64,000 nt of DNA, taken from positions 1-64,000 of the forward strand of contig JAUCBJ010001563.1 in assembly GCA_032718475.1 (NCBI GenBank), read 5' to 3'. The notes under the pieces were generated by a model. It saw only the letters and a program-made list of their open reading frames with translations. It was not told the origin of the DNA and did no database searches. The stretch comes from Nemertoderma westbladi (lineage: Eukaryota; Animalia; Xenacoelomorpha). Positions 13,251 through 61,548 of the stretch are shown in pieces; the stretch's first letter is position 1; each line of letters opens with the position of its first letter. The translations under genes and the position numbers were made by a program.

Positions 13251-13867
13251 CAAGAGCAGGAAGAGCTGCTATATCAAGTACGCGAAAGAACCCTACGCAT
13301 TAGACTAATCCTATCAGCCTTTGAGGAAACTTCCAAAAGAAGACAGGACACGTCGCTGCAAGTTGCTGTCAAGACTTGGTTCCAGCGGGTAGGTCTCAAA
13401 GTACAAGAAACGGCCCAGTGGAAATCCCAGCTGTCTGAGCGACCAACCTATGAAGAATCAACCGATGCCACCTTTTCTCAAGTGGAAAGCGAAGTGACCG
13501 CAGAGAGACCGCGAACGAGAGACGCCATAGACATCTATCTGTCAGACTATCAACGTTTCCTAGGTGATGAAGAGTTGAGGAGACGACTGGCTGGACTTCG
13601 CCCCAATAGTGAAGGAGCCAAGCTTGTGTTGGACTCAATCGATACGGAAATGTTAGCTGCAAACCAAGCTAAATTTGATGAAAAACTCCGCCTCGCTAGA
13701 GTCCAAGAAGAACAAGTGAAGAAAAAACGGATAGAGGAACGAAAGGCAGCAGCAGTAGCATCGGCAATGGCAGAAGCGGAAGCGGCAAAAGCAGCAGCAG
13801 CAAAGGCAGTGGCAGTGGCAGAACTGAGAGCGTCTGAGGAGACTACCCAACTGGAGTTGGAAAATAT
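13251..13867 (+). pseudogene. Fragment of the gag N-terminal region from a relative of the Bel/Pao element at 43658
   Basis: RDAIDIYLSDYQRF.GDEELRRRL.GLRPNSEGAKLVLD...RASEETTQLELENI is shared with ORF 47129-49138. Confidence 0.9.
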
Positions 13868-14641
13868 TAAGTTATAAAGTTATAATAATTATATTCCCGA
13901 GGACTGGATATCACTTATTTGTATTATTGATTAGATTTTAGATACAGTATAAGGAATTAAGGAAATACAGTAGGTAGAACGTACTGTACAGTTATGTATA
14001 AATACTGTAGGTATGCAAGTATTTAAATACAAACTACTACATGTAGAGTACTGTATGGACACGTCCGTGGGGTCCTTCGCGCAGCGCGAGACTGCATAGG
14101 TTTGGTTTAATTTCATCTGTGATAGACTGACTTATTTCGGTTTTCTCAAAAGTCTGAAACTACCGGTACCAACAGAGAGGCCCTCTGATATTTGCGCAAA
14201 CTTCAGGATCTCTCTAAACCTTTGACAGACCACATGTTTACCCAGTTTGTTTAAATATCAGCAATGATTGATCGAATATACTTTCAAGAACTACAGTACA
14301 TACAGTAATTATAAAACATACAAATAATAGGCTACTTGCCGCAGGTAGGATACGAACCTACACGAACTTTTCACTTTTCAAAAAACTTTTCAAAAGATAG
14401 ACTTCATGATTCTCTACAAGCAACCACAATTAATTTCAGCACTGGTAAATGAGGCTTTCCCGAGAAATTTTACATTTTCAAAAAAAACACATAATCTGTC
14501 GTTACTAACTCACGCATTATATTTCACCAAATTTAACAAATTTTTTTAAATTTCCCTCTACTACTGTACTTGCCTACTACAGTAAGTTTGGTTCAATTCG
14601 TAACCAGCAATGTCGAGAAATTCGTGTTCAAACATTTTCCA

Positions 14642-19775: not shown

Positions 19776-19789
19776 ACTGTGATATTTAT

Positions 19790-22663: not shown

Positions 22664-22856
22664 GTAATTAATATATAGTATTATCAAGCAATTTGTCATC
22701 AAATTTTATACTACTCCACTCCATTCCATAATTGTTTGATATCGGCTATCGACTTTAGCATGGTCACCAGTCTCTACAACGTTATGTGACAGAATCAACG
22801 GATTCAACGCACTTTGGCTAGTAAATGTGCTTACAATGAAATTATGGCTCATTTTC

Positions 22857-27776: not shown

Positions 27777-28793
27777 ATCTACCAATAGTGTTAGCGCTGA
27801 CTATCCATTTATCTACCAATAGTGTTAGTGCTGACTATCTGTTTATCTACCAATAGTATTAGTGCTGACTATCTGTTTATATACCAATAGTATTAGTGCT
27901 GACTATCCATTTATCTACCAATAGTGTTAGTGCTGACTATCCATTTATCTACCAATAGTGTTAGCGCTGACTATCCATTTATCTACCAATAGTTTTAGCG
28001 CTGACTATCCATTTATCTACCAATAGTGTTAGCGCTGACTATCCTTTTATCTACCAATAGTGTTAGTGCTGACTATCTGTTTATCTACCAATAGTATTAG
28101 TGCTGACTATCTGTTTATATACCAATAGTGTTAGTGCTGACTATCCATTTATCTACCAATACTGTTAGCGCTGACAATCTATTTATCTACCAATAGTGTT
28201 AATGCTGACTATCTGTTTATCTACCAATAGTATTAGTGCTGACTATCTGTTTATATACCAATAGTGTTAGCGCTGACTATCCTTTTATCTACCAATAGTG
28301 TTAGTGCTGACTATCCATTTATCTACCAATAGTGTTAGCGCTGACTATCCTTTTATCTACCAATAGTGTTAGCGCTGACTATCTGTTTATCTACCAATAG
28401 TATTAGTTCTGACTATCTGTTTATATACCAATAGTATTAGTGCTGACTATCCGTTTATCTACCAATAGTATTAGTGCTGACTATTCATTTATCTACCAAT
28501 AGTGTTAGTGCTGACTATCCATTTATCTACCAATAGTGTTAGCGCTGACTATCCATTTATCTACCAATAGTGTTAGTGCTGACTATCCATTTATCTACCA
28601 ATAGTGTTAGCGCTGACTATCCATTTATCTACCAATAGTGTTAGTGCTGACTATCCATTTATCTACCAATAGTGTTAGCGCTGACTATCCTTTTATCTAC
28701 CAATAGTGTTAGTGCTGACTATCTGTTTATCTACCAATAGTATTAGTGCTGACTATCTGTTTATATACCAATAGTGTTAGTGCTGACTATCTG
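27777..28793. repeat. 34-bp minisatellite, right block
   Basis: Same unit as the left block. Confidence 0.97.
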
Positions 28794-35841: not shown

Positions 35842-36793
35842 TTGGAGAGATATGTGAGATATTAATTTCAAGAAAAATTACGCGATTCCTAAATTTGTAC
35901 ACTACCCGGTTAAAAAGTACGCATGTGATTAGTCCTACAATTGCGCCAATAAAAGATAAGTTATTTTCGGTAAATCATTCGAGGTAAAGACCCCTAGATC
36001 CCTTCCTATAATAAATGTATAATAACAAACACCTCGAAAAATACAGCTTGCCAACACATTGTTACTATCAGTAATAGCACATCACATCATAAACGGTGTG
36101 ACACGTACGCGTACAATAGTTCATAATAGTCCATCACAGCTACACACACACCTTGACCCGTATTATAGTGTTATAATCTGGTGACAAGGAACCCACCAAA
36201 TTGTTCTTCAAATCTTTATCATATTGCTTTAAATTTGAAAAACAACTAGTTCAACTTACCGTCGATGTCCACATGCTAGAATTTTCTATTTTACCCTTAA
36301 TATTTTTTATGTTTTTATGTTTTTTAAAAGAGTTTTTAAAAGTGTCTTTTGCGAAGTCGCACCCTTCGCATCGCAGCCATTCTTCACAAGATTTTTATCA
36401 TTCGAAAGCTTGCGTTTCAAGGATTCTATTCCAAATATGTATCAATGTCTTCGATTCGTTGAGAAACATCTGATATATGGACGTTAAAATATTAGATAAT
36501 TAATACAAATCTGTGTGAAATATCGAATTCGTTTTTAGTCTGTTCAAGTTTCAAATGTTTCATTAATTATTATTTCGATCATCCACAAAATGAAATTCCC
36601 ATACTATAAAACTCTAAAAACTGTCACTAAATGGTATTAATGATTAAAAGTGAACTTTACTATTAAACATAAATATATTTTTTAATGGAACCAGTAATTA
36701 AGAAAGAGATGACGTGTGTGTATATTAGTGCTGAACACTGAAATAGAAACATGGATAAATCTTGAAAAGAAATTGATTGATAAATTCGAACTT

Positions 36794-39319
36794 ATGGGTA
36801 GAGTTAATATATTTGCCAGACTAAAACCAACTCCAAACATCTGTGAGTATTACCGGAACTCCAATGATGTCATTGAGGTTAATATGCCGGATACTCCTTT
36901 ACCAGGAAGCAGAACAACGTCATCCACTACCCAACACCGATTCGAGTTCAATCAAGTACTTGATATATACTCATCCCAGGAGAAAGTATTCGATGCTACT
37001 ACCAAAGGTATAATAGAATCTTTCATTGAGGGTTACAATGGGACCATCATGGCATATGGACAAACTAACAGCGGCAAAACCTTTTCCATACATGGTATAA
37101 ACGATAAACATTCTCATAAAGGCATTGCACCACGAGCTTTAACTATGATTTATGGAAAACTACCAGAAAAATCAGAAGTAAACGACGATATTTCAATAAA
37201 CATTTCGTATGTAGAAATTTACCAAGAGACATGTTACGATCTGTTGAGTCCTGTTGTTTCTTCATTCAATGGAGCTGCGAGTTATCCAAAGGTTTCTGTA
37301 CTCGAGACTTGTGGAGGTGATTACTCTCTACGCAATGTTAGCGTTCACCCTGCACCAAGGGAGGACATTGCACAGGCTTTACTAAACCGAGCTGTATTAA
37401 GTCGCAGTACATCGGAAACCACAACAAATCCGACATCCTCACGATCCCATGCTATATTTACTATCCACCTGAGTATCAGACATGGAGAAACTTCGCGACA
37501 CTCTAAACTCCACTTGGTAGATCTGGCGGGATCCGAACGTGTTTCAAAGTCACGAGTTGATGGCGTTCGATTGAATGAGGCGAAATTCATAAACCGGTCA
37601 CTCCATCATCTTGAACAAGTTATTATTGCTCTGCAAGTTAGTGAGCGCAACCACTCAGGCCGCTTTGAAACTCATATACCTTATAGGAATTCATTGCTGA
37701 CAATGTTGCTCAGAGACAGCCTGGGTGGTAACTGTCAGACATCAGTGATAGCGACAATGTCCATGGATATAAACAACATTGGAGAAACTCTATCAACCTG
37801 CCGTTTCTCCCAGCGATGTGCCTGTGTCTCAAATAATCCAGTTCGTAATGAAACACTAGATGATGCTGTTGTGATCCGTCAGTTGAAGAAAATAATTCAC
37901 GAATTGGAAAGAAAAATACAAACTTTAACGGCACCATTAACTTCCAAGTCGCATAGCATTGACTATGAAGATCTTGTTAATAAGTTTATCGATGGTGAAG
38001 TTGATAACATTGCACAATATGGTGTTAACAATGTAGAAGCCTTTAATTTATGCTTAAATATTTTGAAAACCAGAATAAACACTAGAGATCAAATAAGCCC
38101 GACAGTAATGACATCAGCCCAAGACACATCTACATCACAAGTTAAAATGTATAACAGTAGAGACATCCAAGGTCAGGTGAATATAAATATAACTGAAACT
38201 GCCGTATTTGATGGTGATTTAATTACAAATGGAGATAGTGGTTCCTCTAACAATGATCAAAGGAAAGAACATCCAAGGAAATTGTGTACTCCTTATGAAC
38301 GAAAGAAAAGCAAAGAATTACAAGAACTAAATATTCAAATCATCGATAGAGAAATAGAACAAAAGAAATCCGTGAGGAAGTTGGCAGAAGAACGGATGAT
38401 AATAAAAATGCAACGATTGGATATTACAAAACAGGAATTGGAAACTCAAATAGAAATGTACAAAGACAGAGTTGAAAATCAGCGAGGGTTTGTGCTGCAG
38501 ATGATACATGGGGGTGATTTATTGGATGATATTGAACAGGAAAAGATGGCAGAACACTTGTTAACGAAGAAGTTAAAAAAGTACCAACATCAATTGGCGA
38601 CAGTTAATGGGCAAATAGGAGTACTTGATCGAAAATATTTGAAGAAATATGATGAAACAGCAGAAGAATCATATGCACATGAAACGTTGGATTGTAGTAA
38701 TTCCTTACCCAAGTATCTCACAAGTAATATTGTTTCGCCAAAATATAAATCTCGGCTTGTCTATGACTATCTGAAAAATAAAGAGGATGACCAATTGAAA
38801 AATGATCAACAAATTAAAGAGGCAGCTCGGTGGCGTAAGATAGAAGAGTTGGATAACAAAGAAAAATTAACACGACAAAAACTCCAAGCTCTAAAACTAT
38901 CCCTAGGTACTACAGGTGGTTATGGCAAGAAATCTCTCCAAACTAATGATTCTATTACTGGATCAAAACTATCTAAAACTGAGCCAATCTCTGTAGAATC
39001 CATTACTAATTCCACAGCCAGCTTGTGCAACCAACATGTCAATAATGGGTCTATAGGAGAATACAAAAGCGCTAATGAAGCTGCGATAATTGTTGGTGAG
39101 AAGGGTAAACCAACTCTGTTTGGATCTCAGAAAGACACAGACCTCAAAAATTATAACTCAGATGCATACAACAACAGCTCTCATATTGCCATCATTGATA
39201 AGAAAGACTCTCGTTCCGAAACCAGAATAGCAGATAAACGATTGGAATATTTATTTACAAATATTATACAAAGTCAAAAAAATGGGTTGGTTGGAGAACA
39301 CTGTTTTAGCGAGGCATAG
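36794..39319 (+). CDS. Kinesin-9 family (KIF6/KIF9-like) motor protein, single exon
   Basis: P-loop GQTNSGKT, switch I SSRSH, switch II DLAGSER, EAKFINRSLHHLEQVIIAL, HIPYRNSLLTMLLRDSLGGNC, TCRFSQR; coiled-coil tail; first ATG at 36794. Confidence 0.9.
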   Translation: MGRVNIFARLKPTPNICEYYRNSNDVIEVNMPDTPLPGSRTTSSTTQHRFEFNQVLDIYSSQEKVFDATTKGIIESFIEGYNGTIMAYGQTNSGKTFSIHGINDKHSHKGIAPRALTMIYGKLPEKSEVNDDISINISYVEIYQETCYDLLSPVVSSFNGAASYPKVSVLETCGGDYSLRNVSVHPAPREDIAQALLNRAVLSRSTSETTTNPTSSRSHAIFTIHLSIRHGETSRHSKLHLVDLAGSERVSKSRVDGVRLNEAKFINRSLHHLEQVIIALQVSERNHSGRFETHIPYRNSLLTMLLRDSLGGNCQTSVIATMSMDINNIGETLSTCRFSQRCACVSNNPVRNETLDDAVVIRQLKKIIHELERKIQTLTAPLTSKSHSIDYEDLVNKFIDGEVDNIAQYGVNNVEAFNLCLNILKTRINTRDQISPTVMTSAQDTSTSQVKMYNSRDIQGQVNINITETAVFDGDLITNGDSGSSNNDQRKEHPRKLCTPYERKKSKELQELNIQIIDREIEQKKSVRKLAEERMIIKMQRLDITKQELETQIEMYKDRVENQRGFVLQMIHGGDLLDDIEQEKMAEHLLTKKLKKYQHQLATVNGQIGVLDRKYLKKYDETAEESYAHETLDCSNSLPKYLTSNIVSPKYKSRLVYDYLKNKEDDQLKNDQQIKEAARWRKIEELDNKEKLTRQKLQALKLSLGTTGGYGKKSLQTNDSITGSKLSKTEPISVESITNSTASLCNQHVNNGSIGEYKSANEAAIIVGEKGKPTLFGSQKDTDLKNYNSDAYNNSSHIAIIDKKDSRSETRIADKRLEYLFTNIIQSQKNGLVGEHCFSEA

Positions 39320-42917: not shown

Positions 42918-43657
42918 ATAATAATAATAATAATTGTATTTATAACCCGCCTATACAACAATACAGTAGCTCTAGGCGCACAGACTATGAGATAAGTAGA
43001 GTTCTAAAAATTCCAAATTACACAATTATACAAAAATGGAAACACATGTGCTTTTAATTATCAAAAATGTAAATAAACGCCCACCACGTATACAGATATG
43101 TCAACAATCAGGTGCCTAGCTACTATTGTAAAAATGAAATGAAGTAAATAATTAAAACTGAAGCAGCATTATACAAAAATACATTGCAATATTAATTAAT
43201 TAAGTAGAATTTAAAATCAGCAATAGTATAGTTATAAGTAAAAGTTATAAGTAAAAGTTATAAGTAAAAGTTATAAGTAAAAGTTATAAGTAAAAGTTAT
43301 AAGTAAAAGTTATAAGTAAAAGTTATAAGTAAAAGTTATAAGTAAAAGTTATAAGTAAAAGTTATATGTAAAAGTTATAAGTAAAAGATCTAAAATTCCA
43401 GCAAATAATTAAGTAGAGTTTAAAATCGGCAATATTAAAATCGAAAGTAAAAGTTCTAAAAATCCCAAATATACAATATTTTTAAATCGCTTAAAATCGG
43501 CAATAGTAAAGTCAATCACCATACTCGGTGTTAAACTAAAAAGTCTTCAAGTTTCTTAAAATGTCAAGGCTGGAGGAGTTTCTAATCGAATAGGGTAACG
43601 CATTCCACACTAACTGCCAACAGCAGCAGTTAGAGGAGCGCAGATTACGTGTGGGGT
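42918..43657 (-). pseudogene. 3' end of an L2/CR1-group LINE (left half of the element split by the LTR insertion)
   Basis: Minus strand PTRNLRSS...WNALP..IR; 3' tail GGCGGGTTATAAATACAA(TTA)n; 13-bp GTTATAAGTAAAA repeat at 43231-43386. Confidence 0.75.
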
Positions 43658-44815
43658 TGTAAAAGCTTTTGCGGAATTAGCCGGTTATTTTCCCCGTAAA
43701 GTACTCTGTAGTTGGTTTAACAGGCATAAAAGGCCGTATCCTTACTGTACTGGTGTTTTAGTGGACATAAAAAGCCATTTCTTCTGTATGTGTACTTTAG
43801 TGGACATAATTAGCAAATCTATGTCGCAATACGCGAAATCCTCTTGAAACAGTGTAGTTACTATGACGACAGCTAACAGCTGATCTGTACACGTGTAGCT
43901 TTTTTCCTTGTTCTCTGGTGTTTCTTTGTTCGGTCAACCAATCGGAGCGATTCTCCTGCTTTTTGTACAGAAACCTCCGGGAAATCGCGCAATGCATTAT
44001 GGGTCAATGTTTACATTTTGTCCTGAGCCCAGAAGACCGGCTTTGGAATCTCTGTGTTTTCAGTGTTTAGCCCAACATTAGTAGGCTTAATTATAGAACG
44101 TATATCTGTTATCTTACATATCATAACAATTTATACCTTAACATTTTGCTGCTATTTACTGTCGGTTATTCATTATATCAGTTGATGGAATATTATTATA
44201 TTTGGAATATCTATAAATAATTACAAAACCCTCAATCTTCTTGATATACTGAAGGTAAGAGAGACTGGTTACATATAACGATTGCGACTTACATTAAAGT
44301 GGCTTTGAAGTGAATCTAATGCTATTTCATAGGCACTACATGTATTGGTTGTTGTTCTCTTTATATGTGACTAAAATTAGTGAAGGTCGGCAGATCGGTG
44401 TGCAGCATTGTGCAGTATTGTGTATGATTGTGACTGATAACAAAGCATCTCCTAAAGAATGCGCTATATACGTGAATCCATAGCCATCCCGTTGTGTCTA
44501 GTTTAAGTCATAACTCTGTTTACATATTTAGAGCGCCACGTCCTAAAGGAACTGTTAATATTTCCCGAAAGTGAATAATATTTGTCAGAGATTATATATT
44601 ACGATCAGTCGAATAATACAGTAGGCCTACACCGCAATAAGGTTAGGCTTCCGAATCCAGTCTCCCAGGTATATCCAGCGGGTGAATGGTCGCGCATAGA
44701 CTGGCTTCGGCTAATGTAGTGTATCAAATACTCGTCATAGGCTAAAGACGATTTATTATCTAGAAGACATCCCAATTTGGCAGGTTAAACTGCTAAAGGT
44801 CTGAAAGCGCGAACA
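43658..44815 (+). repeat. 5' LTR
   Basis: Direct repeat of 59476-60633 with about a dozen substitutions counted by eye. Confidence 0.97.
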
Positions 44816-45094
44816 ATAACAGATATTGCTTCTGTATTGCGGTAGGCAATAAAGCTGAAGTACCGGTTAACCGGTACCTAGTAGGCCTGACTACCTAACT
44901 ACCCGGACCGGTACTTACAGCAGTACAGGTACAGCAGTATTATTCGATTTGATAATTATATACCGGTAGGCCTTAATATTGAATCAGGGAGGGCCCGCCC
45001 TGGTTTTTTATTGAGATTTTACTTATTTCTGTCAGTTTTATTTATTTGTAGGCCAATATTGAGCAGAAGGCGTGTAAGCCTGCTCAGATTGTAC

Positions 45095-45670
45095 AGATAA
45101 TTTGTAGGCTGGACTGTTGTCTGACTGTTGTTAAGTCTGAAGGGACTGTAGTGTGTGTAGAGCGTATGTCCGAAAAAGTACTAGTTAGGAAAGTAGGGGC
45201 TTCCAGTGCTGTGAGGTAAGCCCCCTCGAAAGAATAAGTCGTACTACTCAGTTAGAACGCATACTAAGTAACCATTTCGGAGTCTGCATATACTGTAGTG
45301 TATTTAGGCTTGATAGTAGTCTGCCAGCGTTTGGTCTGTACTTTGTTTGTGTAGTCTGTACGGGTAGCGTAATATTTCTTATTTAGATAATTTGTAGGCT
45401 GGATTTTGCCTGGCTGTTGTTAGGTCTGAAGAGATTTCGGTGTGTGTAGAGTGTATGTCCGATAAAGTGCCAGTTGGGAACGTAGGGGCTTCCAGTGATG
45501 TGAGGTAAACCCCCTCGAAAGAATAAGTCGTACTACTCGGTTAGAACGCATACTAACTAACCATTTCGGAGTCTGCATATACCGTAGTTTGTTTAGGCTT
45601 GATAGTAGTCTGTCAGCATTTGGTCTGCATTTTGTTTGAGTAGTCTGTACGCGTAGCGTAATATTTATTA
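45095..45670. repeat. Two tandem ~290-bp repeats in the element's 5' leader
   Basis: AGATAATTTGTAGGCTGGA at 45095 and 45385. Confidence 0.85.
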
Positions 45671-46619
45671 TTCAGAGTTTATGCGATTATTCGCAACATT
45701 CATATCCCCAAGTTTATTCCTACAGTAATTGTGCTTGTTATATATACCGTTATAGTTAAACTAACCCCGGTACTACATCAGGGCTGCTTGGCGTAGGTAA
45801 AGACTGGTGATTTTGTGCCCCGGTCACTCCAGCAGATGCCGTGGTTCTTTTAGCTGTTCAAGTATTTTTAACTTCTGATTATTTGTTGTATAAGTACTTG
45901 TACCTAATTTAGGGTTTAGTGTACAGTGCTTTCCGAAGGTGATTAGTGTGTGGGCAGTATATTTGTGTTGTAAAGTGGTTAATAGGCACGTTGGTTCTGG
46001 TAGACCGCGGTAATTAACTTCTAGGTAGGAACACTCCGTGATACATAATGTAGTACTTATAGCGATACGGCTATAAGTCGTCAGACGGTGGCATTTTCCT
46101 ATCTGGACAACGCAGTATATTTACTACTACTTATTATTTTCAAATACCGTAGTACCCTGTCCGTTGTAATAACCAGATATTCTAACCCTTTGTTAGGCTG
46201 GTTTGTACACTTCTTGTAAAATTACCCTAAAAATTCTTCCTTGTAATTTTTGTGTTTATTTAGAGATTGTAATCTCACCCCGAATTGTACGTAATTTGTA
46301 GTATTAAGTAACTTAGGTAAATTAGAATTATTTGTTTTAGTGTCCAACAAGTAGCACTTCACTGAGAGCGTACAGCTTCTGTGCGGTGACTCTTTCCCAG
46401 AAATAATAACATTTATTTCAAATATTGACAAAAACCCATTAAACGGGTATACATATATTATAAATCAACTCAAACCGATTTATAAAATAGTAGGCCTGTC
46501 ATACATCAATTAGGTCTTAATGTCAGTTTGACTACTGCTTAAATAACGGTAATCAAGTAAAGTAAAGTAAACAAGTAACCCCTAAAATTCAGAAATTCAA
46601 TTATTCTAAAATAATTGAC

Positions 46620-46995
46620 ATACCGGTATTTGCGATAGGCTTATTATATTTTTTTCTATAAATTTAGGCTGAAATTATACCGGTATTCTGTAATTAATTC
46701 TAGTCCATAATTATACTTATATATACTATAAGTGTAAGCTGTATACCGGTATTCACGATAGGCCTACTATATATTTCTATATATTTGTGCTGAAATTATA
46801 TACCGGTATTCTGTAATTAATTCTAGTCCATAATTATACTTATATATACTATAAGTATAAGCTGTATACCAGTATTCACGATAGGCCTATTATATATTTA
46901 TATATATTTGTGCTAAAATTACATACCGGTATTCTGTGACAAACCTAGTCTGTAATAATACTTATATATATACTATAAGTGTATACCGGTATTCT
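46620..46995. repeat. ~120-bp tandem repeats built on TACCGGTATT subunits, in the leader
   Basis: Directly visible. Confidence 0.8.
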
Positions 46996-47128
46996 AATAT
47001 ATTGTATATATATCATGTTACATAGAGTAACGATATCGGTAATTAATTACTAGGCTAACGGTGATACTGAATTACTAGACTTGCTTTAACTGTAATATAG
47101 CAGTAGGCATTCAACTGTATAAACAAAC

Positions 47129-50100
47129 ATGTCTGACACAAAGCCAAACCTGTCAGACAGTCTCCTAGATACAACCATCTGTGACCCAGGCAGGAGTGTG
47201 GAACGTGTGAGACCGAAGTTCAATTCACCTCCTACCGTAAGAAAGATCATCCCTCCAGTAGTAGTATCAGACCCTAGGCTAGTCCAACACCGTAGGTCTA
47301 TCATAGGCACTCGAGCTCAGGTCAAGCGGGACCAAGAAGCAGCAGAACGGCAGCAACACTCGAGCCGAGAACTTATTTCTCAGCGGCCTGACAGCTCCAG
47401 TAGTACGGATACTGTAGAGCTGACACCCGAGCGCGGAGCAAAGATGGCAGATGCGGTTTATTCAGATCCCCTTCTCATCCTTCCTGCAGCCGTACTCACT
47501 AGGGTATTGATTGCGGTGGAGGAACACCAGATTGATTGGGCGAGAAGTAAGCGATCGACCAAGGATAGTTATGCGGGATACACAAGGGAAGAACTGAAGT
47601 CTATTGTCGAGTCGCAATGGAACTTCCCCGGACCCGGACTCCCGTTTGACTTATCGGAAGCTGCCTGGGAAGACATACACAGGATGGGAGTGACAAAAGA
47701 AACCAGCGATCCAGCTGTGTGGAAGAGGTCAGCAGCAGGATACGTACAGGGATTCTTCAGCTCTATGGAGCGATTAGAGGAACAACTGTTTCGACAACCC
47801 CAAGGACCTCAAGAGCAGGGAGAGCTGCTTTATCAAGTTAGAGAAAGAATTCTAAGAATCAGACTAATCTTATCGGCGTTTGAGGAGGCTTCGAAAAGAA
47901 GACAAGACACGTCGTTGCAAGTTGCCGTAAAGACTTGGTTTCAGCGGGTGAGTTTCAAAGTTCAAGGAACTGCCCAGTGGAAATCTCAGCTGGTTGAGCG
48001 CTCAACCCATGGAGAATCAACAGACGCTACCTTCTCCCAAGTGGAAAGTGAAGTGACAGCAGAAAAACCGCATAAGAGGGATGCTATTGACATCTATCTG
48101 TCAGACTATCAACGATTTGTAGGTGACGAAGAGTTGAGGAGACGGCTGTCTGGACTTCGCCCTAATAGTGAAGGAGCCAAGCTTGTGTTGGACGCAATCG
48201 ATGCGGATATGAGAGCTGCGAACCAAGCTAAATTTGATGAACGCCTCCGCATCGCTAGAGTCCAAGAAGAACAAGTAAAGAAAAAACGTATAGAAGACAG
48301 AAAGATAGCAGCAGCGGCAGCAGCAGAGGCAGAAGCAGAAAGAAAAGCGGCAGAAGCGGAAAGAAAGGCGGCAGAGGCAATGGCAGCGGCAGAAGCGGAA
48401 AGAAAGGCGGCAGAGGCAATGGCAGCGGCAGAATCAGAAAGAAAAGCGGCAGAAGCGGAAAGAAAGCGAGCAGTGGCAGAAGCAGAACGAAGAGCATCTG
48501 AAGAGACCACCCAACTGGAGTTGGAAAATATTCAAGAGAATCAAGACTGCATAAATAAACAGTTAACAGCTAGTAATATGCAGATGATGAATCGATCTAC
48601 TCCCAAAAGACAGGGATATACATCATCTGAGGAAGGCGATACCACCGATACTGAAGGTGGAGGAAATAGATCTCGTCTCAGCAGACGTAGAAGAATGTCC
48701 CACCGTCAGAAATTGCCTGATTTGCCCCCAGCTGTTAGAAGGCAACTAACTAACACAGGCTTAGGTAGTACAGAACCCACAGACCAAATAATTAAAATAG
48801 AAAGACTCCCTACTATATTAGAAGAGCCTGAAATAATTAGGCCTGTTCTCGAAGCCACCCCCTCGGTGATAGAGACACCTGTACTCCCTGAACCTATCTC
48901 TAAATTCCCTCTGCACAGCACTAAGCTACCTGTGCCCAGCAGAACAGCCCATGAGACAGTTCATGTCCTGGACTCCGAGCGAAATATTAATGATTTGTCG
49001 CCCGTTGTCCCTCGTCCGCCCGCTACAACGTTGGCGGCTCCCGCTTCGGCGGTCGAGTGGGTGGATGAGAGACGGCGGGGGATGGATCTCCTGCTCGGGC
49101 AGATGCAGGAGACGGTTAAGCAGCAAAGGGCACAGTAAGGGAAAGTAGGTTAGAGTTGCAAGAAGTGCAGCAAAGTATCGCGTTAGAACGCGATAAATTA
49201 GTAAATACACAAAGGGGTATACCACCACCCCCGGTAACAATGTGTCAACCTGTTAGGTCTGAAGTATCTCATGCGCAAGGTGTGTAGCCTACACGCATCT
49301 ATACTGCTAGTGAAGTAGAAACTCCTCTAGTGAACCCTATTAAGGGTAATTATAAACCTGCTGACAATGATATTCCCTATAGACCTGATCATAATCCGAG
49401 AAATTTATATACCGATAACTCGATATTAAATAACACGATGGCCCAAGAAAGTTTTATGCGTCAAATGGCTAGAACCGAAGCCCGTCAAGCGGTAAAGGTG
49501 GGAGAGATAGTCAAGTTCAATGGAGATGAGATGAAATGGTTACCTTTTAATGAATATTACAAAGATAACATACAGAACTCTGTGCTATCAAATGGAGAGA
49601 AACTTAGATTCCTCATCGAGTGCTTGGAAGGATCTCCCAAGTTAATGGCGTTAAAGTTTATTGGACATCCAGATGGATTAAGACAAGTTTGGGATACACT
49701 AAACATCAGGTATGGTAATAGGAATAACATAGCTAAATATTTGTATGCAAAATTAGTAGCACCCCGAAAGTTCATTAGCAGCGGGATTATAGAGTTTTCC
49801 GATGAGATTCAAGAGATCTGTAGACAATTAGATTGGCTAGGTAAGTCTCATGAATATCAGAGTTCTATGGTTATTGGAGCTGTGGCTTCTACTTTACCGA
49901 AGGGTGGAGTAGGTACACGCTGGGATAAGAAAGTGTTATATATGATGGAACAACAACGCCGAGACCCTACCATGGCTGATCTTATGTCATTCTTAGATGG
50001 AGAAGTGAAATTACAGCTCCTAAAACAGTCCAGAGAGAAGACACCGGAAAACAAGGTAAGTGATAAACCAGTTTCTAGGAGAAAAGTAACACCAGTGTGT

Positions 50101-52083
50101 TATACCGACGACGGCGAAAGCCAGACTTCTCAAGGAGAGGATAGCGGGAAAGATACTGAAAGATCTTATTATGTCAATAAAACGCCTAAAGAACAGGTAA
50201 GTAAATTCAAGTCTCGAACCAATGACAGGAGAGAACAGGTAAGAAAAACTCCTCCTACGTCTCCTAAGAGAATTCAGGTAAGAAAGCCCGAAGAAAGAAC
50301 GAGTGTGCACAATGTTATTCAAAATAAGGTAAGTAACATCAAACCGAAATGTGTGCTATGTGACGGGACCCACCGTTTGAATATGTGTGATGAATTCCTA
50401 AAGAAATCATTAACGGAGAGACGGGAAGTCATGTGGGATAAGCGGTTGTGTTATAATTGCCTCAGACAAGGACACCAATGGCGAACCTGTTACTCCGACA
50501 CAAGGTGTGCAAAGTGCGGTGCGAAACATCATATCTTGTTGCACACTGAATTCGAACGAAACAGCCCGAGTCAGGTAAGTGATTCCGAACTACATGTCCA
50601 ATTCAGTGATGTGAACGACACGGACCAAAGTTCTGAGATGGAAGGATTCTATACGGACGAATTCTCCGATGAAAACGAATCCTGTTACATGATAAATACC
50701 GCAGTGTATCGAGCACTTACGTATGAAAAAGACACAGACAGCGACCTCACCCTAACTACTTCTGATCGACAACCATCTTGGAAAGCGCCAACTTCCAATG
50801 TAGGAATCCGAGAATTTCCTGTAGTACAGTTAAGGGTCCACGGACCTAAAAGGAGTTATATAGTGAACGCCCTTCTTGACTCCGGTAGTACAGGAACATT
50901 CATCGACAAAGAACTAGCCGAAGACATCTTTGCTGGACAACCCAAGTTCCGAACTAAGCTAAATATGTCAGGAATTATGCAGGTTTGGAAATCTACAGTA
51001 ATAGCGGATTATTATGTAGGTGCGTTGTCCACCCCCCAGGATGAACTAGGAGAACATAGTATAAGGTCAGTAAAAATGGTGGCGATAAAGAACTTCGCTA
51101 CCAGCCAAGTGGAACCTTATAACTGGGATGAGGACGATTTCACCCAGCAGCTTGAAATACCTAGATTCAACACCGATTACCCTGGAGTGCAAATACTCAT
51201 CGGTCAAAACGCGCATGAAGCGCTCGAGACATTGGAGAAACAGCCTGCTCAACCGCAACCACTACAAGCCTATGCGGGAAGAACTAGAGTGGGTTGGTAC
51301 TTTACTGGCCCTTCCCGTAGAACTCTCATGGAAAGATTACCAAAAGAACAGGTATATCATTTAAGTGAATGGGAAGTGGAGAGCAGTGAAGTTGACGACC
51401 CAACTGAGGGAACACCATACTCCTCAGATAATGACGATATTAACTCTAATGTAGATCAATGGAGATATTGCCCCGAGACGATTAATCTAACCAACATCGC
51501 TTCCAGAGGAGCAACTCCTCAAGAACTGACAGATACTCCAGACTGGTTAGGTGGACCCGACTTCCTAAGTAAAGTAGATGAATGGCCTCCCCATCTTACC
51601 ACGGCTGAGATTAGACAAGCCAAGGGAGCGGACAAAGTCAAACCTAAAACCCGGACGAGTAAATCAAGGTTATTTAAACCCGTGATAGATCTGTCTGTAT
51701 TACACATTGCGTGTATTGCACATCTAAACTCCCCCACCGCGAACCGATCTGTTGTGGAGATCAGAGAGAGAGACTGGAGATCTGGAACACCAGACATCTC
51801 GCCGGGACTCTCACCTCTCCTGCCGGGAGCGATGGACCACTATAGATCCTGGAATCGGCTTTGTAAGGCCGTCGTGTATTTGAAGCGATGTTTCTATCAT
51901 CACTATTCCAGGACGAAGAGGAAACCTGGAATTGTCTTCGAGACACAGCAGCTCAATCGCCCAGTTGGTCGTTTATGTTTACTGGAACGAGACCGAGAAC
52001 TGTCCGGAAACTATGGAAGGCAAGATACTCTTCCCACGACCACCTCCCTAATCCAACAAACATCTAGGGACTCCCCAACTTAA
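47129..52083 (+). pseudogene. Bel/Pao Gag-protease polyprotein, about 1650 codons; one frameshift near 49135 and one TAG at 49285-49287; RT and integrase absent
   Basis: DUF1759-like KFNGD..KW..F...LSNGEKLRFL; knuckles CVLC..H..C, CYNC..GH...C, CAKC..KHHILLH; protease LLDSGS; Pao RNase H tail QWRYCP..N..ASRG..WLGGPDFL; terminal RPVGRLCLLE. Confidence 0.88.
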
Positions 52084-53720
52084 CAACGGCTGGAGCGGGT
52101 GTGTGACTATATTTTGTATTTGTTTTTATTCTTTTATATTTATGTATGTATTATTATGTAATTTTATTATAATCATTTTCTTTAATTTTATTTAGTAGAA
52201 TGTTATTTTAGCGATTATTTAGTAGATTAGTGCAATATATATTAGTGTTTATTACTTAATTACTTATATATTATATATTTAGTGCGACGGCGAGAAATAA
52301 TTATTTTTCTCTTTCCTTACTGTCCGTATTACATTACAAATACGTAACTACAGTAAGATGAAATATCCGTACTTATTAAAGTACAATAAAGCTCCTACTA
52401 TATTCAAGTATTATTGGTAAAGTAGAGTATTAGGAATGCAAAATTCAGATCCTCGTGTCTCGGCTAAACCAAGCTCTGGGTAGACCTTGGAAACGACTTG
52501 CCTCTTCTCACTGACATTGCTTCGTGCGATATTGCTCTCATACCGTATATTAAATAATACATATAGTAGCGTGATGTCCCTTTAACAGTAGCGTACAACG
52601 CAAAATAAATCTGTTAAACCCTTTGACCATCTGTAATTCTAGTCGATTAAGATATCGCGGCACCCACCGATATACTTGAAAGACAAAATTCTAGAATCAG
52701 TGGTTAACGTCCCCAGACAAGTTCTGGAATAAACTGGTGCCCATCCTAAATATTAATTATTAATATTTACAAAATCTGTTAAATTTTAGATCCTTTAAAA
52801 TTCTAGTCTATTAAGATATCGTAGCACTTACCGATATTCTTAAAAAGACCAATTTCCTAGAATCAAGGATTCCAGTCCCCAGACATGTTCTGGAATAAAA
52901 TTGTGTCTATTTAACATTAAATAATAAAATTTACGGGAATAAATTTAAATTCATATTTTTAATGAATTTAATAAATTGTCATTTTTATACAATTTATAAC
53001 ATTCCCAAAATTCCTTTAATTAATAGATCATGGGAGCGGAGATTCACTCTATTAAGTGTATTAGTGTGCGAGAATCTCCAATATATAGTCAATAGCCGAT
53101 AAAATTCATAAAATCATGTATAGAGAGGATATTGACCATTAAAGAATTACTATTAAATAGCATCCCAGATCTGTATACATGAGAATTACCCTAATTCTAC
53201 CGCTAGCTTTCCATAATGTCACCATGGCAACAACCACGCTAGAATTAGAAGTGAGTTAAAAGAACAATAGAAAGCTTGCCCCATTGAATAGCATAGGGAA
53301 TAAATAGCGCACTGCTAGTATCCAAGGATACATAATAATAAAGTGACATTCTGGAAGGCACTGACTAACGGACAAATGGCCCGAATGTGTACAGTTTGTG
53401 ACAGTTGTGTTGAATTTGTGCATTTATAGGTGAATGTTACTGCTAAAAGTGTGTTTACAGTAGTGAGTCGCAATTGTGAAAGTAGCCCTAACTCTCCAGA
53501 AAGAACCTGAAGTACATCTAAGCCTTTGGGACGGACAGTGGAGTGACTTGTGCCGGTTATCGTTGTCGTTGTGTAGCTACATCGTTGGCGAAAGCACAGC
53601 GACGACGGTACATCGGCGCTGAGGATCTTGCACTGTCCGGGGGCAAAGAGGGGTAGGCAGCGACGCCCGCTAGCCTAAAATATAAACTCATTATAATATT
53701 GATAAACTCATATAGCAGAT

Positions 53721-56700
53721 ATGACTGAGTTGATAGAAGATGATCTTGGTATCAGGGAGCAATATACTCTACCTTTACAAGCGTTTGTCGATAGCTTGAT
53801 ACGCGGCGATGCTGGTCCAACTACTACGGAGGATGATGGTCGTTATATCGAACCGCCAATGTCCCCGGAGCAACTTACGCGTGAATTGGATTATAGAAAG
53901 TTCACCGCTCGCTATACGCATCGTAATGGTACGTATATGGACTTCTTAACTAATGGCCATCCTATCGATTTACACGATACGGACGATGTAGACACCAAAA
54001 GGGAAATGGTTTTATTTAAATATCATACCCAGCGGAGTCGGAACGATAAACCGAGAATAGAACACGAGAACTCTATTCGAAACAGACTCGAAAGGGAAGA
54101 CGTTGAAGAGCCGGATAAACGCAGCGACTTCAACGATTATCTGGAATTCCTGAGAGAGACATATCTCAATATTGCCAGCCAACAAAATCTCGAAACTCGA
54201 TATCCTCAAGGTATACATCATGATCCTATGATAGAACTCAAACGACTCTATTTCACTATGATGTATCTTACCGCCGATCGACCGCTACCTGTCGTCCCAG
54301 ATAGCTTCGAACAGATGGAGGAATATTGTAAAACTGGTGAACGATCACCCGCGTTTCCCCTGCAGGACGTGCGTCTTTGGTATTACTGCGACGAATGCCC
54401 TAGACCCAATCAGCAAACGGAAAGACATAAACATCCGCGGAGACGTTGCGCTAAACACAGTTTTACACGATATACTTACGGGAGTTTCGAGCGAAACCTG
54501 TTCGACGTATCACCTACGGTCGCTCGGCTCAAACGATCCTTGAATAAACCAATGATCAGAGTTCCGGAATACTCGGTCAGACCTCCTCATTCCTCAGTTA
54601 GACCTCAGACTCTTGAGCCTAATAGTATCACGGATCCTCCCGAACTGTACTCACTGTTCAAAGATCTAGTGTTACCCGAACAGTTGATCGGTGGCACTCC
54701 GGTAGTGGGCTCGCTAGATATTCGCCAACCCTACCTAGCCGGATTAGGACGCGGTCATCTAATATCGCCGTTTAACCCGTACAACCGTCCCGGCTTCACC
54801 CCGATACAACCCGTTACGGAAGTCGAAGAGAGCGTCGTACGAAACGCGTTAGACGCTATTCGGCAGAAAATCGGAAAGGGAACTTACGATTGTTTGGAGA
54901 AATGTAAATTGCAGCAACAAGTCCAAGCGGTGAAGGAATTAGCTTTACCCCAGTTCGATAGAGAAATACAAAATCTCGAGGAGGACATCGAACGTGGACG
55001 AACCTACTCTTTACAAGAGTTCCTAGATGAGCGTTTACAACAACAAGCGGAGGAAAATCAGCTCGAGGAGAGACATATAGAACTAGATGAGAGAGAAGAA
55101 GCAGCTTTAGCCCAGCCAGAAGCTCAAATCCTTATAACAGATCTCTATTCTAAAACCATTATCCATCCTTCGATGGTTCCTCATTTCGGAGACAAACTCT
55201 TCCCCACGGCACAGCCTCAACCGGTTGATATCAACCTAAGATCTCGAGATCTTATCGCTGATGCTCCCATGTTGCAACGTCCGCCCATCGAAGCCGCTCA
55301 TGTCGATGGTATACTCGTTGAACCTCCGGACAATAGAGCGGATCTTGTCCATCGCATGGTACACGATGTTAACATACTCGCTAGACCTTTACCGGACTCG
55401 TTTTATGGGATCAAAGATCACCCTTGTTGCGTCAATCTAACACAATATTACATGGTAAAACCGGAAGATCCTACACATAGTCTAAGGTTTCTACCACTAA
55501 TAAATCCTCTCGATCTTGTCGAACTCGAACAACTGCAGAAACATCTGGATCAGTTAGTTAAAGTTAACTCATTTCGAAAACCATATAATGTTTCCAGAAT
55601 AGAGAAAGAAACACTACCTCCGTATAATCTTGATGGATTCATCAAAACTCGATTAGTACACTGGAATCTTGACGTGTTATTCGAGGAGGAAAGAATACAA
55701 CGATATGGAGATGTGGAAACATATACTACACAATACTTAAAGTATAGAGATCTACCTAATGCTAGCGAATGCGCTACCTTGTGGCATCCAGTGGGAATGA
55801 CTCTCGAAAACGCCACTAAAGAGTGGAATGAGACTCTTAACGTTATCGAGATGTATGGAGTTGTCACTTACGATAACGAAGGTAGCGTTCCGGTTGGAGA
55901 ACTGGGAACTACGCGAATGATACACATATGAGGACTCGCTGGTTCTACCCACGTATTTACTCGAGCGTGTTCCGATGTGATTGATTATTCTTTTGAGACT
56001 CTTACTGAGACACAAAAGAAACTCCGACATGGACAATTCGAACTCGCGCAGCGTTACGTCACCGACACCGAGCGCAAACCAGCCATGGGTATCGATGGAT
56101 CGATGTTACCCCAGCCCGTGCTCGGAATGTTGTTTAACGAAAGAATCCTTAAAATCGGCTCAGCTGTTTATGGAGATCTACAAAACGACTTTCGGAACAT
56201 GGAGAACATTCCATACCCTTTCGTTGATACTCAGCTGATTGCTCCCTGGGCAGAAGGCCGAGGTTTCTTCCGCACTATGTATTAGGGCGGTGCGTTTTTT
56301 ACTTTTTTTCGATTTCATTGTTCTACCGGTGCACAAAAGTTGCCAAATGGTAAAAAAATAAGGCAAAAAAAATTTCTTTAAATTTCGTCTATATCTTCAC
56401 GGATCCCAAGAGGGTTGAAATTTTGTGCCATCGCGATGCACCATAATGAAATTTATAACAATATAACACATTGATGAAAGATCAATGACTCAAAAAAGGA
56501 CTTCCTGCATGCATCAAATGTCATCAAATGGGTCCAAACTTAGTTAGATACCAAAATTTTAATTTTTGGATCAAGGGAACTAGTGCCACAGGCACGTGGC
56601 CAGAACCTACCATTTGGCGCAAGTGATGATTATTCTCAATTTTCGCGATGACCAACTTTGAGTTCTCCTACTGCATTCATATTATGCTCATTAGAACCGC

Positions 56701-59397
56701 AATGGCCGATTTAGTGGGGGTAGACACCTTCAAAATAAACATAGAGGGAATAGTTCTTGAGATATCGCAGAAAATGTGAAGTCCGGCACAAGTCTACATT
56801 ACCACCTTGATGTGATATGGACAAATACACTAAAAATGATATTTTGAATTATCTCAAGGAATCACGAATAGACACATCACAGAAATGATCGATATAGTGG
56901 GTGAAGACACCTTCAAAATAAGAATAGAGTCATTAGTTCTTGAGTTATTTTACAAAATGTCAAGACTATGTCCACCAATTAATACTTGATATTGAGTTGA
57001 CCCATTCCACACATTTTGTACAAAAACTATAGTGAATTAATCACTACTCTTTAATTTTGAAGTTGTCTGTATACAGTAAATCAATTTGTTGCAGTGATGT
57101 GTATATTTTTGATGCCTTAAGATAATTAGAAGTAACATTTTTGTGTATTTGTCTATAAATCATCAAGGCGGTAATGTTGACTTGTGCCGTACTTTACATT
57201 TTCTGCAATATCTCAAGATCTATTCGCTCTATGCTTGTTTTGATGGTATCTACCCCCACTAAATCGGTCATTGCGGTTCTAATGAGCATAATATTAATGC
57301 CGTAGGATAAATAAAAGTTGTCCATCATCAAAATTGAGAATAATCATTACTTGCGCCAAAGAGTAGGTTCTGGTCATTTGCCTGTGGCACTACTTCCCTT
57401 GATCCAAAAATTAAAATTTTGATATCTAACTAAGTTAGGACCCATTTGATGATATTTGATGCATGCAGGAAGTTCTTTTTTGAGTCATTGATCTTTCATC
57501 AATGTGTTATATTGTTATAAATTTCATTATGGTGCATCGCGATGGCACAAAATTTCTACCCTCTTGGGATCCGTGAAGATATAGACGAAATTGAAAGAAA
57601 TTTTTTTTGCCTTATTTTTGTACCATTTGGCAACTTTTGTGCACCGGTAGAACAATGAAATCGAAAAAAAGTAAAAAACGCACCGCCCTACTATGTATGC
57701 CAATACACCCAGCGGCATTACTAAAGTACAACGAACCTCCATCGGACATCTTGCCTTTCAAGAATACGGATGGAATTTCAAGGTTGGAAATCCTATCAAT
57801 TACCAACAAGTATATGGAGATCATTATTCTCGTTTATACTTTGATGGACCATTGACCGCACCTGGCGCCGTGTATAGCTTTATGAGTGTTCCACTTCGTC
57901 CCTCCTTAGCTATATACACGATCTTTGAAAACGCAGCACTTGCTGGATGGCTAGCCGATGTGTGCAGTCGTACCATACGCACCCACCCCTTAATACTTGG
58001 AACCAAACTCGCCAAGTTAGATTAACACAATAAATTCATCCGCTTCGAATGTTTCAGGCGCTTTCTGACTCCGTTCCGTAACGTTGATAGTCAGTTCAAG
58101 GACCGCGCTCTGACCAAACTCAGCCTAAGAGACTCAGCTGCGGAGAAGCTAAACAGCGCGGGATTTGCCCTTTTCCAGGACGTTTGTATACAGAACTTAC
58201 ATTCATCTGTTATACAAAGACCCCGAATACCCACGGGTTATTCTGTCGTGGAAGTTCAGACAGTGGGTCCGCTTGCGGAGACAGCCGCACCTACCTCAGC
58301 TATGCAATTGGAAGACGAACCAATATGCTTAGAATCTGAGGCGATTCAGCCTACAGCGCCCCGGAGCAGCGATAACGACTACGTCTTAGAGTGGTATCAA
58401 GGTCCACAATGTCTCACCGCATACGATTATCGACACGCCAACTATGTTTCTCGAAAACGTTGTCGATTATGCGCATCGAGAGACCATTTCACCCCTATGG
58501 ACTCAGACGTACCCTGCTCCTATTTCCACGAACAACCGATGATGGAGATCTATTGTGCGTATTGCAGACTTAATAACTCGCACATTTTTGCAGTCTGCCC
58601 CCAATTTATGACTCAATGCCACCACTGTCAACTTAAAGGACATGCCAGTTATAATTGCCCCTTTAACCACGATTTAGAAAGCGTAGATGAGATGATTATT
58701 GCTTATCCTGCGCTACATCCGAGCTTGGGAAGCGAACGCGGATTTACATTGTGAGTCCCGCCATCGCTATTACCCTGGACGCTCTTACGAGGGAGTTTAC
58801 GCGTTCCATCCTTATTTATTCGCGTCTGTTGAACAAAAAACACGCACACCGAGTTACGAACTAATGAAGCGTGTTGGTGAGTGTATTTCCACCAAATTTG
58901 TTCGAAAATATCTCAGGAACGTCAATCCTAACGATATTACTTCATACCATTTGATCAATTTCATCCGTCAAGACCCTGAGTATGGCGATTTATTTATCAA
59001 CTCGCACCCTTAGTTACAGGAAGTATCTCGACGGCCCTACGAATATCGAGCCCGAGAACGTGAGCTGGAAAGAACCATTAAACCGAGGAAGTTTCTCACC
59101 ACTCACGGTCCACCTACCGCCATTGTCCAGACGACCCGTCAAGGACCCGTAGGAGCTGCTGTCCTAAGACGCGCCCTAAAGGCCGTTAGACCTCGCTCCA
59201 CTGAAGTTGATATCGATCAACCAGGTACTTCGACCGGCGGATACACCGATCGTAATCCTAAACCTTCTGATGCAATTGTATTGCACCCTTCACCCAGGAG
59301 TTACAGCCCTCCTAGTAAAGTGGCTCGCCCCAAAGAGAAAAGGACTCTTGCTAGCCTCAAAAAACTGCGTAAACGCCGTCCGCGTAAGAAAGACTAA
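53721..59397 (+). pseudogene. Extra gene (ORF3) of about 1420 codons after reconstruction: unknown N-terminus, DEDDy 3'-5' exonuclease-like domain, CCHC knuckles, basic tail
   Basis: The frame continues through TGA 55929, across the MITE (TSD CTATGTAT) and through TAA 58023; frameshift near 58740; TAG 59011; ends KKLRKRRPRKKD-stop near 59397. Confidence 0.8.
56283..57690. mobile_element. 1408-bp foldback MITE, hAT-like
   Basis: TIR TAGGGCGGTGCG; 8-bp TSD CTATGTAT (56275-56282 and 57691-57698); arms complementary over most of the length. Confidence 0.92.
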
Positions 59398-59465
59398 CTG
59401 TTTAGAGTATTTTTATATTTTAGAAACTGTGATTTTTTATATTTTATAGACTAAAATCCCATTTT

Positions 59466-59475
59466 CTGGGAGCGG
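59466..59475 (+). other. Polypurine tract before the 3' LTR
   Basis: CTGGGAGCGG directly followed by TGT. Confidence 0.7.
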
Positions 59476-60633
59476 TGTAAAAGCTTTTGCGGAATTAGCC
59501 GGTTATTTTCCCCGTAAAGTACTCTGTAGTTGGTTTAACAGGCATAAAAGGCCGTATCCTTACTGTACTGGTGTTTCAGTGGACATAAAAAGCCATTTCT
59601 TCTGTATGTGTACTTTAGTGGACATAATTAGCAATTCTATGTCGCAATACGCGAAATCCTCTTGAAACAGTATAGTTACTATGACGACAGCTAACAGCTG
59701 ATCTGTACACGTGTAGCTTTTTTCCTTGTTCTCTGGTGTTTCTTTGTTCGGTCAACCAATCAGAGCGATTCTCCTGCTTTTTGTACAGAAACCTCCGGGA
59801 AATCGCGCAATGCATTATGGGTCAATGTTAACATTTTGTCCTGAGCCCAGAAGACCGGCTTTGGAATCTCTGTGTTTTCAGTCTTTAGCCCAACATTAGT
59901 AGGCTTAATTATAGAACGTATATCTGTTATCTTACATATCATAACAATTTATACATTAACATTTTGCTGCTATTTACTGTCGGTTATTCATTATATCAGT
60001 TGATGGAATATTATTATATTTGGAATATCTATAAATAATTACAAAACCCTCAATCTTCTTGATATACTGAAGGTAAGAGAGACCGGTTACATATAACGAT
60101 TGCGACTTACATTAAAGTGGTTTTGAAGTGAATCTAATGCTATTTCATAGGCACTACATGTATTGGTTGTTGTTCTCTTTATATGTGACTAAAATTAGTG
60201 AAGGTCGGCAGATCGGTGTGCAGCATTGTGCAGTATTGTGTATGATTGTGACTGATAACAAAGCATCTCCTAAAGAATGCGCTATATACGTGAATCCATA
60301 GCCATCCCGTTGTGTCTAGTTTAAGTCATAACTCTGTTTACATATTTAGAGCGCCACGTCCTAAAGGAACTGTTAATATTTCCCGAAAGTGAATAATATT
60401 TGTCAGAGATTATATATTACGATCAGTCGAATAATACAGTAGGCCTACACCGCAATAAGGTTAGGCTTCCGAATCCAGTCTCCCGGATATATCCAGCGGG
60501 TGAATGGTCGCGCATAGACTGGCTTCGGCTAATGTAGTGTATCAAATACTCGTCATAGGCTAAAGACGATTTATTATCTAGAAGACATCCCAATTTGGCA
60601 GGTTAAACTGCTAAAGGTCTGAAAGCGCGAACA
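59476..60633 (+). repeat. 3' LTR
   Basis: Direct repeat of 43658-44815. Confidence 0.97.
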
Positions 60634-61548
60634 GGGATGGTAAAGTGAAAGTAATTCAGACAAGTATTCCGGAGCCGTTTCATGTAGGCATTTATAAGTA
60701 AGAACTGCTAGTATCTTGTAGTCAATTCGTCTATGAACTGGTAGCCAATGAAGTTTTTCAAGAATGGAGATATGGTCATATTTTCTGACATTACAGAGCA
60801 ATCTAGAAGAACAGTTCTGTACATATTGCAGCTTCTTAATATATTTCTGTGGTAACCCAAAGTACAGTATAATGAATTATTCAAGTCCAACCGAGATGAG
60901 ATAAAAGCGTGAATCGCTGTCTCCAAGTCTTTTTTAGGCAAATATTTCCTAATCCGCGAAAGATTGCGAATGTATGGTAGAATGACTCCGAAACTACGTG
61001 AGCTATTTGTTTATCTATCCTCAGGTGTTCATCCTCAATAAAACCAATACTCCTGGCTGATTTATGACTTTCCTCCATTTTCCTCCGATTTGCAGCTTTT
61101 GAGCAGGCAGTTGATCAGCAAAACGCGATTGCATTAGGACCATCTCAGTCTTACCGTCATTTATTTTCATAAAATGCTTATTCATCCAATTTTTAATATC
61201 ACCAATGCAATCTGCCTAACATCAATGACCTCACTACGTTTAAATGAAACATATAGCTGTGTATCATCAGCAAACAAGTGATATTTTAGACATTGTCGCC
61301 GAATTACGTTGGAAAGGGAACGCGTATATAGTTAAAATAATAATGGCCCAAGAACAGAACCCTGTGGAACTCCATATTTCAAATACTTTTTATGTGAATA
61401 ACTATCTCCAATAAGTACTCGATAAGAGCGCTCACTAAGGTAAGAGCGAAACCAATTTAATGCATGCCCAGTTACACCAACATTATGCTCTAAAATTTGT
61501 AGTAGTATGGAATGGTCAATGGCATCAAACGCGGCACTTAAGTCGAGC
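60634..61548 (-). pseudogene. RT region of an L2/CR1-group LINE (right half), frameshifted and 5'-truncated
   Basis: [58 protein letters not shown]; joins 43657 as YHP|TRNLRSS. Confidence 0.88.

Follow-up and report, generated by a model that had tools for sequence, protein, structure and literature searches.

Within the analysed stretch of the Nemertoderma westbladi assembly GCA_032718475.1 (contig JAUCBJ010001563.1, positions 1 to 64,000, hereafter "the window") lies a long terminal repeat (LTR) element of 16,976 bp (43658-60633; 15.6 kb without an inserted miniature inverted-repeat transposable element, MITE), with the Gag and protease of a Bel/Pao retrotransposon, only remnants of pol, and a long third open reading frame (ORF3). 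Self-comparison of the window gives two direct repeats of 1158 bp at its ends, 11 differences apart (0.95%; 99.05% identity). They have the TG...CA ends and the 5-bp target duplication of Bel/Pao elements, the duplication being alike in four of its five bases. On this basis, the insertion is recent and was made by an integrase. A sequence-only reading of the window had treated 47129-52083 as one element stretch. This stands from the capsid onwards, where ORF2 is a single frame, but ORF1 and ORF2 lie in different frames: the reading shifts near 49.11-49.14 kb, and a stop follows at 49285.

ORF2 has the DUF1759 capsid followed by three zinc knuckles (aa 355, 388 and 407), and after Gag the protease (Pfam: DUF1759 E 5e-11, aspartic protease weak), as expected of Bel/Pao. 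Reverse transcriptase (RT) with RNase H, and an integrase with zinc finger and D-D-E, are represented only by remnants. Of 157 search hits, 28 full-length Bel/Pao polyproteins were chosen for their length and three motifs, and a profile built on these 28 was run against the 2023 six-frame segments of the window. Nodes 182-715 (Gag and protease) match ORF2 aa 45-687 (independent E-value, i-E, 6.6e-76), nodes 1266-1334 (RNase H tail) match aa 719-788 (i-E 1.4e-10), and nodes 1351-1383 (the helix after RNase H) match aa 848-880 weakly (i-E 0.077); no other of the 2023 segments scores better than i-E 0.84. The nodes skipped in ORF2 are those containing YxDD (983), DAS (1161), the integrase zinc finger (1475-1510) and D-D-E (1546, 1607 and 1657), and nodes 716-1265 have no match in any of the six frames of the window. 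The RT, RNase H and integrase families of Pfam likewise have no match in ORF2, and its sole YxDD-like word falls inside Gag (aa 272). The sequence-only reading had described protease, acidic linker, RNase H tail, SWNRL and RPVGRLCLLE in one frame, no catalytic motifs of RT, RNase H or integrase, and a frame kept across both gaps; the profile matches, the skipped nodes and the 931 codons open from 49288 to 52083 confirm all three points. The possibility that an RT sits out of frame, or at some other place in the window, was considered and rejected, as the six-frame profile search gives no Bel/Pao-type RT or integrase core in any frame of the window. With RT, RNase H and the integrase core missing, the element is hence a Bel/Pao derivative and not an autonomous member.

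The extent of the two gaps can be read from the spacing of the remaining motifs. From the protease to WxxGP there are 223 aa in ORF2, compared with 687-746 in the 18 measurable references, and from WxxGP to the C-terminal motif 138 aa, compared with a median of 522.5 in the 28 references. By this spacing, ~510 residues are missing between the protease and the RNase H tail, and a net ~385 from the tail to the end. The short remnants behind the tail stand out clearly: the SWNRL helix ranks first among 43,047 sequence windows (31.9 vs 3.4 bits), and RPVGRLCLLE first among 63,277 (27.0 vs 14.4), the references having been selected for carrying the latter motif. In the RNase H tail, NLTN is found in place of the NPAD of the references, the Asp of which we take to be catalytic. 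One protein that also passes from protease to RNase H tail (P0061) was set aside as support: it is known from one barnacle gene model, in which splicing may have been predicted across a defective element.

Table 1. The Bel/Pao-derived element and its target-site duplications, in window coordinates.
Feature	Position	Strand	Remarks
Left target-site duplication	43653..43657	.	5 bp; four of five bases equal to the right one
5' LTR	43658..44815	+	1158 bp, TG...CA ends
Leader	44816..47128	+	2.3 kb; tandem duplications at 45095-45676 and 46620-46994
ORF1	47129..49138	+	669 aa, coiled-coil-like; likely N-terminal part of Gag
ORF2	49288..52083	+	931 open codons: capsid, three zinc knuckles, protease and pol remnants in one frame
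ORF2, Gag part	49288..50790	+	DUF1759 capsid ~49516-49899; three zinc knuckles from 50350
ORF2, aspartic protease	50791..51346	+	LDSGS at 50875, to GW end motif
Acidic linker with joint A	51347..51441	+	RT and most of RNase H missing here
RNase H tail remnant	51442..51651	+	i-E 1.4e-10
Post-RNase H helix remnant SWNRL	51829..51927	+	absent from the shorter subfamily
Joint C, RPVGRLCLLE (51958-51987), ORF2 stop	51928..52083	+	integrase core missing at joint C
Polypurine-tract-like run, then TGTG	52088..52104	+	directly behind the ORF2 stop
Spacer	between ORF2 (end 52083) and ORF3 (start 53721)		1.6 kb
ORF3	53721..59397	+	~1,400 codons, broken in the window copy
MITE in ORF3	56283..57690	.	1.4 kb, ~550-bp inverted ends, 8-bp target duplication, hAT-like
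Polypurine tract before 3' LTR	59467..59475	+	
3' LTR	59476..60633	+	11 differences from the 5' LTR over 1158 bp
Right target-site duplication	60634..60638	.	

Six public runs from four studies contain the stretch or part of it, and their contigs were compared with the window. No run recorded as RNA is among them. Run X1 possibly comes from the sample behind the window itself; X3 and X4 carry the same organism label but stem from different samples and studies; X5, of low depth and perhaps RNA, has another organism label and is not counted as a second host, and X6, also of low depth with 11 of 30 bins covered, was left out. On 47000-56270, 89,598 of the 8,938,268 contigs of X1 and 26,084 of the 1,581,921 of X3 could be placed, and none of the 30 bins is empty. 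Coverage of 51000-52200 is likewise complete (30 of 30 bins) in each of four runs, and the share of placed contigs continuing into unlike sequence is 0, 0, 0.10 and 0.23; here the contig evidence consists of the best 32 of 12,879 pieces, together with 24 out of the 404 loose ends. Joint A lies between 51346 and 51442, and one X4 piece that spans it (51239-51471, with 18 differences in 233) extends 31 letters past 51440. Another X4 piece (51271-51460, 33 differences in 190, depth 743) runs from the protease just 19 letters into the RNase H tail, and at 51447 contig ends lie 65 (X4) and 54 (X5) letters away. Joint C is crossed by one piece of X4 (51884-52153, 37 differences, depth 819) and one of X5 (51758-52113, 49 differences).

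Divergence between the window and the joint-sharing copies is 8-17%, as against 0.95% between the LTRs of the window copy. The gaps thus predate the window insertion, and the RNA copied at this locus thus already lacked pol. That the gaps mark a lineage, and not a deletion private to this locus (the contrary outcome named beforehand by the sequence-only reading), is borne out by these diverged contigs from other samples crossing both joints. We consider it highly improbable that the deletions happened after insertion at the locus, that one dead copy was segmentally duplicated, or that the joints are errors of assembly: such explanations draw on separate loci not being seen directly, but they agree poorly with joint-sharing copies so much further apart than the window LTRs. 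The last of them was rejected, the joints being present in contigs from several samples and studies.

A shorter subfamily joins ~51635 to 51955 (depth 4671 in X3, 960 and 480 in X4, 4.8 in X5). This subfamily (51632-51955) also lacks the SWNRL helix, and has two different joints with the same net loss of 303 bases; the length is known for four of the nine joints listed, and the frame is kept in three of these four. Single contigs reach depths of several hundred to several thousand, beside rare ones of 10-60, which suggests that each subfamily has tens to hundreds of almost identical copies, the contigs being short and summed depth not being equal to copy number.

The claim that Gag and protease are kept holds for the domains, which are present in ORF2, but the Gag of the window copy is itself broken, by the frameshift and the stop at 49285. 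Contigs from other copies vary in length at the frameshift site, and the break is therefore likely not family-wide. The ORF2 Gag part further contains seven perfect AGGTAAG splice-donor words (49839-50579), six of them in codon phase 0; the last follows closely on the third zinc knuckle. In synonymous shuffles the mean is 0.45 such words, and 0 of 5000 reach seven. The words may serve as donor sites of an RNA that encodes only Gag, or may be what is left of short internal repeats.

Three stops (55929, 58023 and 59011) interrupt ORF3 in the window copy, as do the MITE and a shift of frame near 58750. One piece of it matches the NCBIfam model rnd (RNase D; E 0.0036, model positions 60-104), far below the cut-off, and a later piece matches a zinc knuckle of Pfam (E 0.007). 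No exonuclease match to ORF3 was found in Pfam, PDB or two protein searches, and the ORF3 pieces have no relatives in the protein searches and no useful match in PDB. Inspection by eye shows an ExoII-like Asp and, near 55875, a D-x-E word, while the ExoIII Asp is not clear. The exonuclease cargo proposed earlier thus keeps the one weak RNase D match in its favour, set against nothing in Pfam or PDB and a frame that is broken here; judged by its sequence, ORF3 likely encodes a putative accessory RNase D-like exonuclease with Cys/His knuckles. Upstream of ORF3, the run directly behind the ORF2 stop resembles the true polypurine tract and sits where the 3' LTR of a plain Bel/Pao element would start. 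It is possibly a relic 3' boundary predating the uptake of ORF3, or else an internal tract.

Differences among the copies show which parts have been under constraint, with synonymous counts taken from the best-supported 40 of 337 and 40 of 1889 differences. In the protease 8 of 12 are synonymous (expected share 0.27, p 0.005) and in ORF3 9 of 11 (p 0.0003), compared with 8 of 24 in the linker and pol remnants (p 0.39). The remains of pol, still in frame as far as the former stop, are thus likely leftover sequence on which constraint is weak. An LTR-less fragment of a second ORF1 copy, 83% alike in DNA, lies at 13185-13877; between ORF1 and its part at 13251-13718, the ratio of nonsynonymous to synonymous rates (dN/dS) is 0.15 over 156 codons. 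It seems distinctly unlikely to us that the element is a passive passenger, its RNA packaged wholly by the proteins of a helper, its own Gag and protease unused, and the synonymous excess inherited from autonomous ancestors. The broken Gag of the window copy, a number of stops slightly above that predicted from LTR age, the uncertain type of the ORF1 fragment, and the possibility that the placed protease-region contigs include pol-bearing relatives would all suit such a passenger. However, at joints of high depth the frame is preserved in pol-less subfamilies that differ by 8-17%, and the synonymous share of protease and ORF3 differs from that of the pol scraps.

The window copy is a recent, now broken member of an old family. 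We believe it probable that this family is multi-copy, pol-less and Bel/Pao-derived, has Gag, protease and ORF3, and has spread via the enzymes of a rarer autonomous helper. Intact members would make a Gag-protease that packages their own RNA by cis preference, and the Gag-Pol of a rarer Bel/Pao helper would be co-assembled into the particle, where the helper's RT and integrase would act on the LTR ends and the polypurine tract; the ORF3 protein would likely be translated from a spliced RNA. The proposal of the sequence-only reading, particles of the family's own with RT and integrase borrowed from elsewhere, is thus likely.

Several observations weigh against this reading. Synonymous differences are not in significant excess in Gag (4 of 8, p 0.14) or in ORF1 (3 of 6), and all these counts come from small subsets picked by the tool. 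The window copy has four stops, one of which may be a true end, where ~1.8 would be expected since insertion from LTR divergence, and two frameshifts in addition; decay after insertion explains most of its breaks. Downstream of the 5' LTR (44816-45300), none of four TGG-type patterns of a standard primer binding site was found. The copies are seen as short contigs, and separate loci with their own target duplications are not seen. A few contigs part from the window just ahead of the RNase H tail, at 51438-51440 (eight in X1 and one in X5, the latter with 255 loose letters), and four low-depth contigs from X1 and X3 (depth 22-61, ~80% alike) match only from 51928; the gaps are therefore not in all relatives. 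In those joining at 51928, the last integrase motif is preceded by other sequence, 84 to several hundred letters of it. Both groups are candidates for pol-bearing relatives; the contigs joining at 51928 may be such relatives (the expected rare helper) or more diverged copies. Finally, no helper or close relative was found in protein searches, where the best matches are ~27-31% identical; among metagenome contigs 0 of 43 pattern matches could be confirmed, and among viral contigs 0 of 2.

The same low-depth relatives bear on an animal Bel/Pao system in two parts, in which a very abundant pol-less element would give capsid, protease and the accessory exonuclease of ORF3, and a rare partner without ORF3 or a working Gag would give RT and integrase, each needing the other and gaining from it. 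Other sequence upstream of the last integrase motif is what such partners might carry; Gag-protease and ORF3 look selected while the pol scraps do not, and pol-less forms predominate among the placed contigs. We nevertheless regard this system as unlikely, in terms both of mutual need and of mutual gain: no partner sequence is seen, Bel/Pao helpers have Gag and Pol in one frame (28 references) and so supply a Gag of their own, and a one-sided parasite accounts for all the data.

As to known systems, the analogy with the TR-GAG elements of plants survives as a functional likeness only, since size, type of Gag and lack of a protease do not carry over. TR-GAG elements are shorter than 4 kb, possess a primer binding site and one Gag frame of Copia or Gypsy type, and were chosen as lacking similarity to protease and RNase H (PMC4350172). 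The element described here has in common with them LTRs, a polypurine tract, a 5-bp target duplication, a kept Gag without RT or integrase, several copies of the same structure without RT (as contigs, the loci not being seen), and mobilisation in trans, inferred in both (PMC4350172). Unlike them, it is 17 kb long (16,976 bp against the limit of 4 kb), has a Gag of Bel/Pao and not of Copia or Gypsy type, keeps protease and pol scraps where TR-GAG has a Gag-only frame, and has the long ORF3 (PMC4350172). The nearest architecture that we found in print is that of sugar beet, with 28 families of GAG/PROT only and eight more with decayed POL remnants, many without a recognisable partner; these are, however, plant Copia/Gypsy and not animal Bel/Pao families, and no accessory enzyme gene is described for them in the accessible text (PMC13570524).

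With Bel/Pao elements (Belpaoviridae) it shares the DUF1759 capsid, the three zinc knuckles, the protease, the protease-RNase H-integrase order of the remnants, and the LTRs, and differs in having no RT, RNase H or integrase core (PMC3118150, PMC7642597). Defective Bel/Pao copies are common, as in mosquito Pao/Anakin, but a pol-less family with shared joints and a selected Gag-protease is not described in the accessible parts of these sources (PMC3118150, PMC7642597). Defective copies and non-coding LTR derivatives, and no pol-less Bel/Pao family, are likewise what is found in the corresponding parts of PMC3118150, PMC7642597, PMC3286476, PMC3442997, PMC2997562, PMC6431247 and PMC3915180. No such family was found in the literature searched, a scope outside which Repbase, most subscription papers and supplements fall; these may contain such families. 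The rotifer elements Juno and Vesta have a third gene after pol, a DEDDy exonuclease ORF3, and thus resemble the present element in a third gene with RNase D likeness; unlike these, which have gag and pol, it lacks pol, and its ORF3 of ~1,400 codons has Cys/His knuckles and a weak exonuclease match (PMC5408684).

Gag/protease-only LTR parasites have been described from plants, and an abundant, old one of Bel/Pao type would extend this strategy to an animal lineage. If true, such a parasite could keep a large accessory gene under selection after the loss of pol, and the role of exonuclease-like third genes becomes testable apart from pol. Surveys with RT or integrase profiles would miss the family, even though 1.0-1.6% of all records in two of the runs are contigs belonging to it.

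A search of Rfam gave three matches, at chance level, and no tRNA was found. Elsewhere in the window, a 643-codon frame on the minus strand (25847-27778) looks by eye like the RT and C-terminal part of a non-LTR retroelement, with no Pfam match at E 0.1. An intronless kinesin frame of 868 codons (36713-39319; Pfam Kinesin E 3e-87) is possibly a retrocopy. A Transposase_21/DUF4218-like frame and a DUF4806 frame (17400-22678) likely belong to a DNA transposon, and are adjoined by a long array of 34-bp tandem repeats from 22725.

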